From assembly GCA_012729375.1 (NCBI GenBank), contig JAAYDE010000100.1, forward strand, positions 10,414 to 74,413: a stretch of 64,000 nucleotides of DNA, written 5' to 3'. This document shows, piece by piece, positions 17,244-21,242 of the stretch. Made by a program: the position numbers and the translations under genes. How positions within the stretch are numbered: position 1 is the stretch's first letter; every line of letters starts with the position of its first letter. Origin of the DNA: Deltaproteobacteria bacterium. Lineage in GTDB: Bacteria; Desulfobacterota; Desulfuromonadia; Desulfuromonadales; JAAYDE01. Under the pieces are notes generated by a model that had not been told where the DNA came from, did no database searches, and saw only the letters and a list, made by a program, of their open reading frames with translations.

Positions 17244-18002
17244 TCAGTGGTTCTGGTAATAGATGGCCGAATGATCCATGATGTCGTGAACCTGAATGGC
17301 CGTTTCCAGAAACTGTTCCATTTCGTGGGGAGGAATTTTTTTTCTGTGGCGATAGACGATGAGCTTTTCTCCCTTCCCTTCGATGCACAGATCCCGTTCC
17401 TTTTCGCAGAGGATGATAATCCCTGAGTTGAGGAAAATGCCGCGGATTTTTTCCTCTTCCTGGCCGTAGAGCTGGTAGATTTCCGAAAACAGGGGGAAGG
17501 AACGGCATTCGATGGTTCGATAGCCTAATTTGTTTTCAAGTCTCTCCATGGCGCTGGACTCCATGGCCGCCCGAGGTTGCAGGGAAAAAGCGGGGAGAAA
17601 AAGGTTGTTGGTTTTGAAACAGGCCAGAGTCTGGACCAGGCACGATTCATCCTCCCCGTCCTGTTCCATGGCGGCCGGGTCCCCCTCGATTTTGGTTTTG
17701 TAATCGAAAACGGCCACGAAAGCCTGACCCATCCCCCGGGTCAGAAGATTTTCCTCGAAGCCGGGTCTGCCCGAATTGAACAGGGGCAGGGAGGAAAATT
17801 GCTGGAGGATGGAACCATCCCCTGCCTCACGGAAAGAGAAGGCCAACTGGAGGGCGACTTCTTTCATTTCCGCGGTCCTCTTGCGGGTGAAGCGTTTGCC
17901 GAGGATCATGGCCGATCCCCAAAGGATGAGGGTCGTTCCCGAAATGAGGGTGAGAACCTGGTCGGTTCCCAGCATTTTGATCTTTTCGAACAGGGTCACC
18001 AT
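17244..18002 (-). CDS. Hypothetical N-terminally membrane-anchored protein
   Basis: GGGGAG RBS, single TM followed by basic residues, 252 aa. Confidence 0.7.
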   Translation of the reverse strand: MVTLFEKIKMLGTDQVLTLISGTTLILWGSAMILGKRFTRKRTAEMKEVALQLAFSFREAGDGSILQQFSSLPLFNSGRPGFEENLLTRGMGQAFVAVFDYKTKIEGDPAAMEQDGEDESCLVQTLACFKTNNLFLPAFSLQPRAAMESSAMERLENKLGYRTIECRSFPLFSEIYQLYGQEEEKIRGIFLNSGIIILCEKERDLCIEGKGEKLIVYRHRKKIPPHEMEQFLETAIQVHDIMDHSAIYYQNH

Positions 18003-18204: not shown

Positions 18205-19548
18205 TTACACCAGGCCCTGGTCGATCATGGCGTCGGCCACCCGGATAAATCCGGCGATGTTCGCGCCCTTGACGTAATTGACGTAGCCGTCGGCTTCCTG
18301 GCCATATTTCAGGCAGTTGTTGTGGATGGCGACCATGATTTCGTGGAGCCGGCGGTCCACTTCCTCCCTGGTCCAGGACAACCGCATGCTGTTCTGGCTC
18401 ATCTCCAGGCCGGAAGTGGCCACGCCGCCGGCGTTGGAGGCTTTGCCGGGGGCGAAGAGAAGTTTCGCTTTCTGGATGACATGGACCGCCTTGGGAGTGC
18501 ATGGCATATTGGCCCCTTCGCAGACGGCCAGGCATCCGTTGGCGACAAGCTTCCTGGCGTCCTCCTCGTCCACTTCGTTCTGGGTGGCGCAGGGCAGGGC
18601 GATGTCGCACTTGACTTCCCAGGGACGCCGGTCTTTGAAGAATTGGGCGTGGGGATACTGCTGGGCGTAGGGTTCGCAGATGTCCATGTTGGAGGCCCTG
18701 AGCTTGAGCAGAAAATCGATCTTCTCGCCGGCGATGCCGTCGGGGTCGTAGATATAGCCGTCGGGGCCGGAAATGGTCACTACCTTGGCGCCCAGTTGGG
18801 TGGCTTTCAGGGTCGCGCCCCAGGCCACATTGCCAAAACCGGAAACGGAGACGGTTTTGCCTTCGAAGGATTCCTGATTCCTCTTCAGCATCTCCTCGGC
18901 GAAATAAACGCAACCGAAACCGGTGGCTTCGGGACGGACCAGACTCCCCCCCCAATTCAGGCCCTTGCCGGTGAGAACGCCGGTAAATTCGTTTTTAAGC
19001 CTTTTGTACTGACCGAACAAATAGCCGACTTCCCGTCCTCCGACCCCGATGTCCCCGGCCGGAACGTCGGTGTCGGCGCCGATGTGGCGAAACAGTTCGG
19101 TCATGAAGCTCTGGCAAAATCTCATGACTTCGTTGTCGGTTTTCCCTTTGGGATCGAAATCCGAGCCGCCCTTGCCGCCACCCATCGGCAGGGTGGTCAG
19201 GCTGTTTTTGAAAACCTGCTCGAAAGCGAGAAATTTCAGAATGCCGAGGTTGACGCTGGGGTGAAAACGCAAGCCTCCTTTATAGGGTCCGATGGCGCTG
19301 TTCATTTCGATGCGGAAACCCCGGTTGACCTTGATTTCACCCTTGTCGGTCATCCAGGGGACGCGGAAAATGATGATCCTTTCCGGTTCGACGATGCGCT
19401 TGAGGATTCTGGCTTCCTCATATCGAGGGTGTTCCTCGATATAGGGCATGACCGATTCCACCACCTCGGAAACGGCCTGGTGGAATTCCAGTTCTCCAGG
19501 ATTTTTGCGGACCACCGCCTCAAGGAATTCTTCAATTCTTTTTGACAT
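18205..19548 (-). CDS. gdhA: NADP-specific glutamate dehydrogenase
   Basis: AAGGAG RBS; GPYKGGLRFHP, GGGKGG, DVPAGDIGVG, GFGNVA, EGANMP, NAGGVATSGLEMSQN. Confidence 0.96.
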   Translation of the reverse strand: MSKRIEEFLEAVVRKNPGELEFHQAVSEVVESVMPYIEEHPRYEEARILKRIVEPERIIIFRVPWMTDKGEIKVNRGFRIEMNSAIGPYKGGLRFHPSVNLGILKFLAFEQVFKNSLTTLPMGGGKGGSDFDPKGKTDNEVMRFCQSFMTELFRHIGADTDVPAGDIGVGGREVGYLFGQYKRLKNEFTGVLTGKGLNWGGSLVRPEATGFGCVYFAEEMLKRNQESFEGKTVSVSGFGNVAWGATLKATQLGAKVVTISGPDGYIYDPDGIAGEKIDFLLKLRASNMDICEPYAQQYPHAQFFKDRRPWEVKCDIALPCATQNEVDEEDARKLVANGCLAVCEGANMPCTPKAVHVIQKAKLLFAPGKASNAGGVATSGLEMSQNSMRLSWTREEVDRRLHEIMVAIHNNCLKYGQEADGYVNYVKGANIAGFIRVADAMIDQGLV

Positions 19549-19683
19549 GTTTTTACTCCTTGTGTTGTTATGAAAAGGTTTCGTAAAGAAAGGGGTTCTT
19601 TTCTTTGTTAACTTCCGAAGACGCACTCGTAAATAAGTAATTATCTATGATCATTATGATTTTTGAAAAAAATCAGGTTCCTG

Positions 19684-19743
19684 AAAAAAGAAAAAGACAT
19701 CCCCTGAGGACGCCTTTGTCTTAATCGCGCACGCCGTTGTGCG
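19684..19743 (-). promoter_or_regulatory. ANTAR-target RNA (two hexaloop hairpins) overlapping an intrinsic terminator in the gdhA leader
   Basis: Minus strand: CGCAC-AACGGC-GTGCG, 7-nt spacer, GAC-AAAGGC-GTC; the second hairpin overlaps the terminator AAAGGCGTCC...GGATGTCTTT and its U-tract. Confidence 0.85.
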
Positions 19744-19764
19744 TTCTGCAAATTTCTTCGCCCC

Positions 19765-19794
19765 TGTATACTGATTTTCGAGGAAAGATGTCAA
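19765..19794 (-). promoter_or_regulatory. Candidate sigma-70 promoter for gdhA
   Basis: TTGACA-N18-TATACA, about 20 bp upstream of the first ANTAR hairpin. Confidence 0.5.
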
Positions 19795-19932
19795 GGGCTT
19801 TGGTAAAGTGGTCGCGGTTCCTTCGGCGCATCGCCCTTGCTTCTCCGAACACATTGAAATATCATATGAAAAAATTTCATCTCCGACGGTTTTTAAAGGG
19901 CCCTTGCGGCCTGGAATGGAAGGAATGCCGAT

Positions 19933-20682
19933 TTGAGCGAATATGAAGACAACTCCTCTCCCTCGCCGGACAGACTTCTGAACGCCCTCTCCAGAATCAG
20001 CGAGGCCATTACATCCGATCTTTATCTGGACGATATTCTCAAGTTCATCGTCACCGTTACGGCGGAACTACTGCAGTCCAAGATCTGCTCTCTGATGCTG
20101 CTGGACGAAAGCAGTAAGGAACTGGTGGTCAAGGCAACTCAATCGATCAGCGAGGATTATCTCCGCAAACCGAACATCAAGCTGGGGACGGGGATTGCCG
20201 GCAAGGTGGTCCAGACGGGAAAGGAATTGACCGTCGCCGATGTCAAAAAGGATCGCCGCTACATCTGCACCGACATCGCCTGCAAGGAAAATCTCTGCTC
20301 CCTGCTCAGCGTTCCTCTGCTTTACAAGGGTTCGGTGATCGGGGTGCTCAACTGCTACACCTCGGTTCCCCATGTCTTTACCGCCGCGGAAAAGAAGGCC
20401 ATTCGCTCGATAGCCAATCAGGCGGCGGTGGTCATCGCCAACTTCAAACTGGTGGTGGAAAGTCAGGTGATCAAGGAGGAACTGGAGGCCCGCAAACTGA
20501 TCGAGACTGCCAAGCGCCTGCTGATGGAACAGGAAGGGGTCAGCGAGCGGGAAGCCTACAACCGGATGCGGCAGTACAGCATGAACACGCGGCGCAGCAT
20601 GCGCGTTGTGGCTGAGGCCATCGTGCTGACCCAGAAGGCCAATCTCACCGAGCTCAAGCCGATGTTTCTGCGCAGCAAATAG
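19933..20682 (+). CDS. GAF-ANTAR RNA-binding antiterminator
   Basis: AAGGA RBS with TTG start; GAF domain (GIAGKVV, SLLSVPL, IGVLNCY), then coiled coil and ANTAR motif RKLIETAKRLLM..SEREAYNRMRQYSMN..MRVVAEAI. Confidence 0.92.
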   Translation: MSEYEDNSSPSPDRLLNALSRISEAITSDLYLDDILKFIVTVTAELLQSKICSLMLLDESSKELVVKATQSISEDYLRKPNIKLGTGIAGKVVQTGKELTVADVKKDRRYICTDIACKENLCSLLSVPLLYKGSVIGVLNCYTSVPHVFTAAEKKAIRSIANQAAVVIANFKLVVESQVIKEELEARKLIETAKRLLMEQEGVSEREAYNRMRQYSMNTRRSMRVVAEAIVLTQKANLTELKPMFLRSK

Positions 20683-20738: not shown

Positions 20739-21242
20739 TTATTCTCGGGCGGCGCGGAGCGCCTGGACCAGAATTTCGACCCGGCCGCCCTTGGGCAGCG
20801 CGGCGACCTGAAAGGCCGCCCTGGCCGGTGGATTCGTCGTGAAAAAGGTTGCGTAAACTTCGTTCATCGCAGCAAAATCATTGATGTCTGCCAGGAAAAC
20901 CTGAACTTGGACCACATCCTGCACTGTAAAGGAGGCTTCCTCCAGAATCGCCTGGACATTGGCCAGGGCCTGGCGGGTTTCAGCGACGACTCCACCCGGG
21001 ACCAGGGTTCCGGCAGCGGGGTCAATACCGAGTTGTCCGGAGATGAACAACTGGTTTTCCACCTGTATCGCCTGGGAATAGGGGCCGATAGCGGCCGGTG
21101 CTTGAGGGGTGTGAATGATTTTCCGTTGGGTGCTGGCCATGTCCGCTCCTTGTGCCGGCAAAGATACCGTTGACAGAAAAAGCAATATCCAAAAGGGAGT
21201 GAGGCGCAAAAGGGCTGGCCCCTTTTTCGTGTCTGCCGCCAT
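20739..21242 (-). CDS. ridA: RidA (YjgF/UK114) enamine deaminase, with optional N-terminal signal peptide
   Basis: APAAIGPYSQA, ISGQL, FAAMNEVYA, PPARAAFQVAALP..VEI; second start at 21140. Confidence 0.9.
   Translation of the reverse strand: MAADTKKGPALLRLTPFWILLFLSTVSLPAQGADMASTQRKIIHTPQAPAAIGPYSQAIQVENQLFISGQLGIDPAAGTLVPGGVVAETRQALANVQAILEEASFTVQDVVQVQVFLADINDFAAMNEVYATFFTTNPPARAAFQVAALPKGGRVEILVQALRAARE

Follow-up and report, generated by a model that had tools for sequence, protein, structure and literature searches.

The RNA target of the ANTAR protein EutV of Enterococcus faecalis is known to consist of two hairpins, P1 and P2, whose hexaloops carry A at position 1 and G at position 4 (A1/G4); the hairpins need a short linker between them, and the element competes with a terminator (PMC8934654, PMC3369931). 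NasR of Klebsiella oxytoca, a NIT-ANTAR protein, is a one-component, ligand-sensing antiterminator that acts on a nitrogen-assimilation leader; according to passages of PMC7496416, only one further one-component ANTAR protein has been characterised. In Geobacter sulfurreducens, GnfK/GnfR mediate ANTAR antitermination of nitrogen genes, GnfR being a receiver-ANTAR (REC-ANTAR) protein that targets nitrogen-fixation genes (PMC2995071). Here we describe a locus from the same order, Desulfuromonadales, which lies in a stretch of 64,000 nucleotides (nt) of contig JAAYDE010000100.1 from a Deltaproteobacteria bacterium; this whole stretch is referred to as the window in the following. At this locus gdhA, encoding glutamate dehydrogenase, is preceded by a leader with a dual-hairpin element resembling the EutV target and is divergent from a gene for a one-component protein with a GAF and an ANTAR domain. 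We consider ANTAR-type antitermination of gdhA by the adjacent GAF-ANTAR protein to be the best reading of this arrangement, and a very probable one.

An earlier note on this DNA had described, for positions 19684-20682, dual hexaloop hairpins with a 7-nt spacer and A1/G4 in both loops, as well as a TTGACA sequence. This description proved right to the base, and the interval is correctly bounded by the end of the T tract on one side and the regulator's stop codon on the other. The features are compiled in Table 1. Both hairpins have the properties of an ANTAR target, i.e. adjacent 6-nt loops with A1/G4, a short linker and a terminator that overlaps P2. P2 had also been proposed to be part of the 5' arm of an intrinsic terminator, and the consensus terminator scan places the start of an 11-pair stem (4 G-C pairs, 3-nt loop) within the P2 loop, so that the terminator 5' arm, starting at 19717, overlaps the loop and the 3' arm of P2. 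Since this arm begins within the P2 loop, P2 and the terminator are mutually exclusive; in its minimum-free-energy structure the leader forms P1 and the terminator but no P2. The consensus promoter scan omitted the promoter candidate because its -10 element ends in A. The sequence TTGACA followed 17-18 nt further on by a TA-rich hexamer is kept at the equivalent position in all seven distinct leaders of the bacterial family to which the window belongs. The start codon of gdhA is the ATG at 19548, and the N-terminus of the protein aligns with the paralog described below and with the orthologs from residue 1. The spacer between the two divergent genes comprises 384 nt, with the regulator gene lying 190 nt from P1.

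Table 1 Features of the gdhA leader, the divergent regulator gene and the second leader element of the same genome. Positions refer to the window unless stated otherwise; leader sequences are given on the gdhA-sense strand.
Feature	Position	Strand	Basis or detail
gdhA (glutamate dehydrogenase), 447 aa, proposed regulated gene	18205..19548	(-)	Pfam ELFV_dehydrog 305 bits, ELFV_dehydrog_N 171 bits
Intrinsic terminator	19683..19717	(-)	stem 19717-19693, then U tract TTCTTTTTTC; consensus scan
P2 hairpin GAC-AAAGGC-GTC, hexaloop with A1 and G4, proposed antiterminator element	19709..19720	(-)	sequence reading
P1-P2 linker CGATTAA, 7 nt	19721..19727	(-)	sequence reading
P1 hairpin CGCAC-AACGGC-GTGCG, hexaloop with A1 and G4	19728..19743	(-)	sequence reading and fold
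Promoter candidate TTGACA-N18-TATACA	19765..19794	(-)	-35 at 19794-19789, -10-like at 19770-19765
GAF-ANTAR one-component regulator, 249 aa	19933..20682	(+)	Pfam, AlphaFold2 model
Second leader element	G000:C92:47229-47274 = L004 2030-2075, outside the window	(+)	composite scanner, sequence reading

The resemblance to EutV/EutW concerns the anatomy of the target (A1/G4 hexaloops in P1 and P2, a short linker and a terminator over P2) and the binder, proposed to be a dimeric ANTAR protein. However, EutV is switched by kinase phosphorylation and targets ethanolamine genes, whereas the protein encoded in the window has a GAF domain, no receiver domain and gdhA as its putative target. With NasR it shares the one-component layout and the control of a nitrogen-assimilation leader, but the NIT sensor of NasR binds nitrate/nitrite and the target of NasR is nasF. 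A further resemblance concerns narK RNA (RF03032), the consensus of which shares two words with the leader, namely a loop with CAACGGCG and the sequence GACAAAG.CGUC. The narK RNA is tied to ANTAR proteins; our literature search found no paper on this link. In the Rfam search of the leader, narK RNA was the best match (21.1 bits against a gathering score of 43.2, E = 0.36), and we rejected membership of the leader in this family on account of the score. A match to ctRNA_p42d (17.6 bits) was likewise below threshold and covers the terminator only.

According to the proposed mechanism, transcription would start from a promoter of the sigma-70 type some 15 nt ahead of P1. By default, the emerging transcript would fold into P1 and the terminator, and the polymerase would stop about 135 nt before the start codon of gdhA; that termination is the default state appears likely because P2 has three base pairs and the terminator eleven. 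A dimer of the regulator, when in the state that binds RNA, would grasp both A1/G4 hexaloops, that of P1 and that of P2, and hold the weak 3-bp P2 helix, by which the terminator would be denied its 5' arm and the polymerase could read through into gdhA. Binding of a small molecule by the GAF domain would set the RNA-binding state, and the same protein would control a second gdhA paralog via a matching leader. We infer RNA binding, antitermination and action as a dimer, as well as the ligand and the sign of the response discussed below. ANTAR proteins bind RNA, with an output that depends on what the bound hairpin competes with, and for some ANTAR targets that overlap ribosome-binding sites translation control has been proposed; the protein could therefore bind the leader and act via mRNA stability or translation instead of antitermination. 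We regard this as very improbable here, since the structure in competition with P2 is a canonical terminator whose pairs co-vary with it and since P2, located about 140 nt 5' of the Shine-Dalgarno sequence AAGGAG, is unable to occlude the ribosome-binding site.

In a survey of 201 genomes of the order, the regulator has full-length orthologs (69-100% identical) solely in the family of the window, in its own genome and in four of the six others; a close relative is a Desulfuromonadaceae metagenome-assembled genome with a regulator that is 90% identical. Matches with E <= 1e-20 in seven other genomes of the order aligned solely to the GAF part of much longer proteins. A covariance model (R1) built from five gdhA leaders was searched across 151 genomes of the order, a check which the earlier note had proposed for orthologous leaders, and yielded seven strong matches (50-64 bits) in five genomes, all of them directly 5' of gdhA. 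These are the same five of the seven genomes of this family (f1) that bear the regulator. Two of the strong matches stem from genome G033, where both gdhA paralogs have a leader. With regard to the remaining two genomes, regulator, element and gdhA (as searched with this query) are all missing from G047, which is 100% complete, and in G073, which has no R1 match, the contig ends inside gdhA, truncating it at residue 131.

The seven distinct family leaders also bear out the expected conservation of the hairpins in relatives, as P1 and the terminator are maintained by compensatory changes. RNAalifold predicts P1 and the terminator with 15 pairs, none of which is broken and three of which are changed on both sides. 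The basal pair of P1 is C-G in five and U-A in two of the leaders, and ten terminator pairs are kept among the seven relatives, two of them via two-sided changes and none broken, while the length of the P1-P2 linker ranges from 7 to 14 nt. The stem of P2 and its loop positions 1-4 (AAAG) are invariant, and loop positions 5-6 (GC, AC or AT) vary together with the 3' arm of the terminator. In both hairpins, variation affects the stems and loop positions 5-6 but not positions 1-4. Such a pattern would be expected if a protein reads the first four bases of the loop and the last two are free to vary as long as the terminator can form.

In a set of 14 distinct leaders, which includes metagenome loci, 89.5% of the cells are paired; sliding the 3' partner yields no more than 53%. 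Five of the 11 pairs in this set are changed on both sides, and the covariation reaches 0.375 versus 0.201 in shuffles, with none of 500 shuffles attaining the observed value. The pattern used to select the set required the inner four pairs of P1, the inner three pairs of P2 and A1/G4 in the loops; the latter two positions show no change in any of the 14 sequences. As for the outer pairs, pair 2-18 is formed in 14/14 sequences with five pair types, pair 1-19 in 9/13 and pair 42-57 in 10/14.

A genome-wide check, also suggested by the earlier note, returned one ANTAR gene as against two leaders of this kind, each belonging to a gdhA paralog. The profile search found a single ANTAR-domain gene (one match at 70 bits) in the genome, which is rated 100% complete with 4.47% contamination. 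The second gdhA paralog (446 aa, 75% identical) is located on contig C92 (locus L004, 2272-3612), and its leader has its own TTGACA promoter, a P1 of the sequence CGCAC-AATGGT-GTGCG, a P2 of the sequence GAC-AAAGGC-GTC and a terminator. Faulty binning does not account for the second copy, since G033, a separate genome from this genus, likewise contains the two gdhA paralogs, and a leader precedes each of them. For genome scans we used a composite scanner, which demands a hairpin with an A..G loop, a hairpin with an A..G hexaloop and an overlapping terminator, with a maximum linker of 30 nt; it took the place of an earlier, cruder scan, the 57 candidates of which were mostly noise. In the 2.67-Mb genome the composite scanner found five sites on both strands, including the two gdhA leaders. 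Based on the three unrelated sites, we estimate a value of about 2e-4 for a chance site on the correct strand of the 384-nt spacer. Among the assembled contigs of four RNA-labelled runs, five RNA-derived pieces (151-335 nt) fall within the two coding regions of gdhA and the regulator, none covering 19629-19957. The genome also has two glnA-type and two amtB-type genes.

Decoy RNAs are known for EutV. The transcript of about 75 nt from promoter to terminator could likewise be a small RNA that bears an ANTAR site and titrates the regulator, with gdhA being transcribed from a separate downstream promoter. A promoter-like sequence, TTTTCA-N18-GATAAT (9/12 matches), indeed lies 3' of the terminator at 19640-19669 on the (-) strand, between terminator and gdhA, and the stretch of about 135 nt from terminator to ATG is long. 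This sequence is probably there by chance, since it is not conserved in the leader of the closest relative, G033. Moreover, the terminator tail of G060/G083 is only about 57 nt away from the ATG, leaving little room for a promoter, the element stands directly before gdhA on its strand in all seven strong matches, and the genome scan found no other target that could be freed by titration. We conclude that a decoy function is highly unlikely.

The claim that the divergent neighbour encodes a GAF domain, a coiled coil and an ANTAR domain is borne out by the Pfam domains and by a structure model with a long helix. Pfam assigns GAF_2 to residues 32-168 (69.2 bits; GAF, 64 bits; the GAF domain corresponding to about nt 20026-20436) and ANTAR (PF03861) to residues 181-231 (67 bits versus a cut-off of 27.3; about nt 20473-20625). 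A receiver domain is absent from the four Pfam hits of the regulator, in agreement with the proposal that no kinase is needed, and 'response regulator PdtaR', the name given to a homolog by one source, is a misnomer because of this architecture. In the AlphaFold2 model (mean pLDDT 83.7), a GAF domain (12-142) is followed by a long helix (151-201) and two further helices (205-219 and 223-246); as modelled, the regulator is a GAF domain joined via a helical stalk to a three-helix ANTAR domain. Homodimer prediction gave a score of 0.61 versus 0.00 for the best of three controls, which may reflect likeness to solved GAF/ANTAR dimers. The contacts agreed to at least 90% between runs, partner pLDDT was at least 83, and the predicted interface involves the helix 11-29 and the stalk helix 152-187. 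The mark set for this score is reached by 20 of 30 solved one-chain pairs and by one of 23 solved single chains, counts that are only rough because our own alignment was supplied.

With respect to the sensor, the nearest sequence and fold relatives are the GAF domains of PtsP and NifA. The sequence matches PtsP GAF structures 3ci6 (E 3.5e-16) and 3trc (E 6.8e-16), the fold compares to these with a target-normalised TM-score of 0.87-0.88, and the Geobacter GAF domain structure 3e0y is also among the best solved relatives. Among NCBIfam models, PtsP (9e-15) and NifA (9e-12) score best, each far under its full-length cut-off, and the identity to the closest known relatives is just 24-28%. An assignment of the regulator as a full PtsP/EI-Ntr protein (NF008283) was rejected, since it scores 54 bits versus a cut-off of 583 and matches only profile positions 2-159. 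PtsP and NifA also differ in their outputs, a phosphotransferase and a sigma-54 activator, respectively, whereas the output here is ANTAR; the ligand may differ as well. These nearest relatives read glutamine or 2-oxoglutarate, the latter being bound by the GAF domain of NifA. In EI-Ntr, the GAF domain is reported to bind glutamine (PMC4848567). Because the GAF domain of the regulator is most similar to those of PtsP/EI-Ntr and NifA, we regard glutamine or 2-oxoglutarate, as indicators of nitrogen status, as the foremost candidates for the ligand; this is still a guess, as it was in the earlier note. Geobacter expresses gdhA under plentiful ammonium (PMC2995071), which would fit an activation of the regulator by glutamine or an inactivation by 2-oxoglutarate; relatives of the regulator that precede glnA would fit the opposite response logic.

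In other families of the order, R1 gave weak matches (17-27 bits) to leaders with hairpins and a terminator that precede nifH (Pfam 436 bits) or a radical-SAM gene. We inspected 20 loci (L023-L042) of the 49 matches under 50 bits. About six of them (L032-L035, L038, L039) have intergenic hairpins and a terminator; the remaining inspected matches lie within coding sequence and were taken as noise. ANTAR-type leaders before a radical-SAM (NifB-like) gene and nifH were seen at L032-L035 and L038 (genomes G080, G128, G030, G124 and G008), an example being GGCAC-AATGGC-GTGCC ... GGC-AACGAG-GCC followed by a terminator. Presumably, these leaders represent the GnfR regulon described for Geobacter, as nitrogen-fixation genes of this kind are the targets of GnfR (PMC2995071). 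The P1 of these nifH/radical-SAM leaders, GCAC-AAYGNN-GTGC, is very similar to that of the gdhA leader. Unlike the GnfR system, in which a response regulator acts on nitrogen-fixation genes, the genome of the window has no second ANTAR gene, and a true nifH was not found in it (best match 34.9 bits).

The regulator belongs to a large group of proteins, with homologs in 6518 cluster representatives at E <= 1e-10; among the matches listed, those outside the family are 60-68% identical, and several are labelled Omnitrophota by their source. A metagenome scan revealed 366 stretches that encode relatives, and we examined the best 80 of these 366 loci. At least 23 of the 80 contain gdhA, which is a lower bound because the sequence of many loci stops less than 1 kb from the regulator gene. 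The gene is divergent as in the window in four of the 23 (gdhA 76-94% identical), co-directional in 15, further downstream in three and upstream in one. In the co-directional loci gdhA starts 272-357 nt 3' of the regulator gene on the same strand, and the regulators of this group are 81-100% identical to a protein that NCBI labels Omnitrophota. The spacers of this Omnitrophota type contain a TTGAAA-N17-TATAAT-like promoter, a P1 of the sequence AACAC-AAAGTGA-GTGTT with a 7-nt loop and a P2 of the sequence GGAT-AAYGAC-GTCC, with a long terminator that begins at the 3' arm of P2. An extra hairpin with a U tract between P1 and P2 was seen in L062, L067, L070, L074, L078, L081, L082, L086-L088, L095 and L097, and L090 is without it. 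By eye, no second ANTAR-type hairpin was found before this middle terminator of the Omnitrophota-type leaders.

When applied to the same loci, the composite scanner found 28 sites in 24 of the 80, compared to one or two in each of five dinucleotide shuffles. The genes after these sites include gdhA, glnA, GAF-ANTAR paralogs and a small sigma/LuxR-like gene, and the location of the element before GAF-ANTAR paralogs suggests autoregulation. Sites L082:6348, L090:6333 and L095:2895 are terminators at the 3' end of gdhA and were discarded as false positives, as were the hairpins designated P1 in L070, L074, L088 and L097, which are loops of the middle hairpin picked because the linker was limited to 30 nt. 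In its own phylum, the regulator has homologs at E <= 1e-40 in 108 of 401 genomes. These are at most 56% identical, versus 62-68% for metagenome or Omnitrophota-labelled proteins; on sequence grounds, the Desulfuromonadales family may have acquired the module laterally, perhaps together with gdhA. A phylum locus (L146) has a convincing element before a gene whose N-terminus resembles the glutamate-synthase-domain neighbour of metagenome loci described below.

Several observations weigh against antitermination of gdhA by the GAF-ANTAR protein. The terminator scan alone is at chance level (one site versus 0.7 expected), the fold of the whole leader has a z-score of -1.18, with 19 of 200 shuffles folding equally well, and the Rfam search of the leader returned no family at the gathering score. 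P2 is without covariation support in the family, because its three base pairs never vary there, and the genomes compared are kin and not independent samples. In the 14-sequence set only the outer pairs provide an unbiased test, given the selection pattern, and outer pair 43-56 is formed in only 6/14 sequences. Within the phylum, gdhA was found within about 1.5 kb of the regulator homolog in 0 of the 19 loci examined, and gdhA of G. sulfurreducens is under the control of RpoN and GnfM (PMC2995071), so that the pairing with gdhA is not general and the attenuator is a feature of the family and not of the whole order. The Omnitrophota-type leaders have a P1 loop of 7 nt and a P1-P2 distance of 23 to about 100 nt, 11 of the 12 aligned ones contain the extra terminator-like hairpin between P1 and P2, and one of 13 (L062) has G at position 1 of the P2 loop. 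As a linker longer by 20 nt abolishes antitermination by EutV according to PMC8934654, these leaders fit the ANTAR model badly. The ligand and the sign of the response, finally, are proposed from domain likeness.

Some of these points would favour an attenuator that is constitutive or controlled in another way, i.e. by NTP levels, another protein or a metabolite-binding RNA, with the GAF-ANTAR protein acting elsewhere and being linked to gdhA by synteny only. The lack of covariation in P2 within the family and the same-phylum homologs that are not beside gdhA are in line with this. Nevertheless, we judge such an explanation to be quite unlikely, as the invariant loop positions 1-4 next to changing stems argue for recognition of the loops by a protein, as element, regulator and gdhA are co-present or co-absent across the seven family genomes, as no known riboswitch family of Rfam was matched, and as the sole ANTAR protein has no other ANTAR-type site found in the genome.

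The RNA mechanism proposed here is already known, while the novelty lies in the class of sensor and in the target, and the assignment of a regulator to a target reaches a large protein family. Antitermination by ANTAR proteins is established, as is its connection with nitrogen genes, and GAF-ANTAR proteins are common without a studied example. According to passages of PMC3369931, no GAF-ANTAR protein had been characterised as of 2012; the parts of PMC7496416 concerned with the one-component ANTAR class name only NasR and PAL (2020), a 2025 review depicts the GAF-ANTAR architecture, with no case described in the sections that bear on it (PMC12591593), and a Streptomyces GAF-ANTAR protein is termed 'of unknown function' (PMC12838073, 2026). 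In line with the statement of the earlier note that it was not aware of this pair having been characterised, our literature search found no description of a GAF-ANTAR regulator of gdhA. The term 'Glutamate dehydrogenase' is absent from the main text of PMC3369931, the supplementary target tables of which may list a gdhA leader. Known control of gdhA comprises repression by Nac in Klebsiella and RpoN/GnfM in Geobacter (as cited in PMC2995071), from which the leader would be a distinct route.

This locus provides an unusually clean minimal system with one regulator, two near-identical leaders and one enzyme, through which ammonium enters glutamate, and with a 249-aa protein and a 60-nt RNA the question of what GAF-ANTAR proteins sense and target is directly testable. 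Elements were found before gdhA (in the family of the window and in the Omnitrophota-labelled clade), before glnA, before the paralogs of the regulator itself and before one glutamate-synthase-family gene. A more far-reaching idea, which we put forward tentatively and hold to be possible rather than likely, is that the GAF-ANTAR family (about 240 aa) represents a widespread nitrogen sensor, free of kinases and independent of PII/NtrC, which would bind glutamine or 2-oxoglutarate directly and set read-through of the ammonium-assimilation gene of its host.

Regarding the neighbourhood in the window, a 252-aa open reading frame at 17244-18002 (-), immediately 3' of gdhA, matches no Pfam family at E <= 0.01. 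At 20739-21242 (-), a RidA/L-PSP family gene (Pfam 134.8 bits), whose product is extended at the N-terminus by about 45 residues, is oriented convergently to the regulator gene, with no evident terminator between them.

Among the other loci, L075, L117, L118, L120, L123, L124, L127 and L146 carry a gene with a glutamate-synthase domain (529-550 aa; Pfam 58 bits for the copy in L118) 46-304 nt after the regulator gene, and in L117 gdhA is also present just 5' of the regulator gene. In L104 and L107 two dual-hairpin-terminator elements are arranged in tandem. Tandem GAF-ANTAR paralogs occur in L054, L059, L065, L068, L069, L072, L104 and L126, where an element with the P1 tttc-AGYGTTA-gaaa and the P2 aggat-AAAGAC-gtcct separates the first copy from the second, an arrangement suggestive of one regulator acting on the next.

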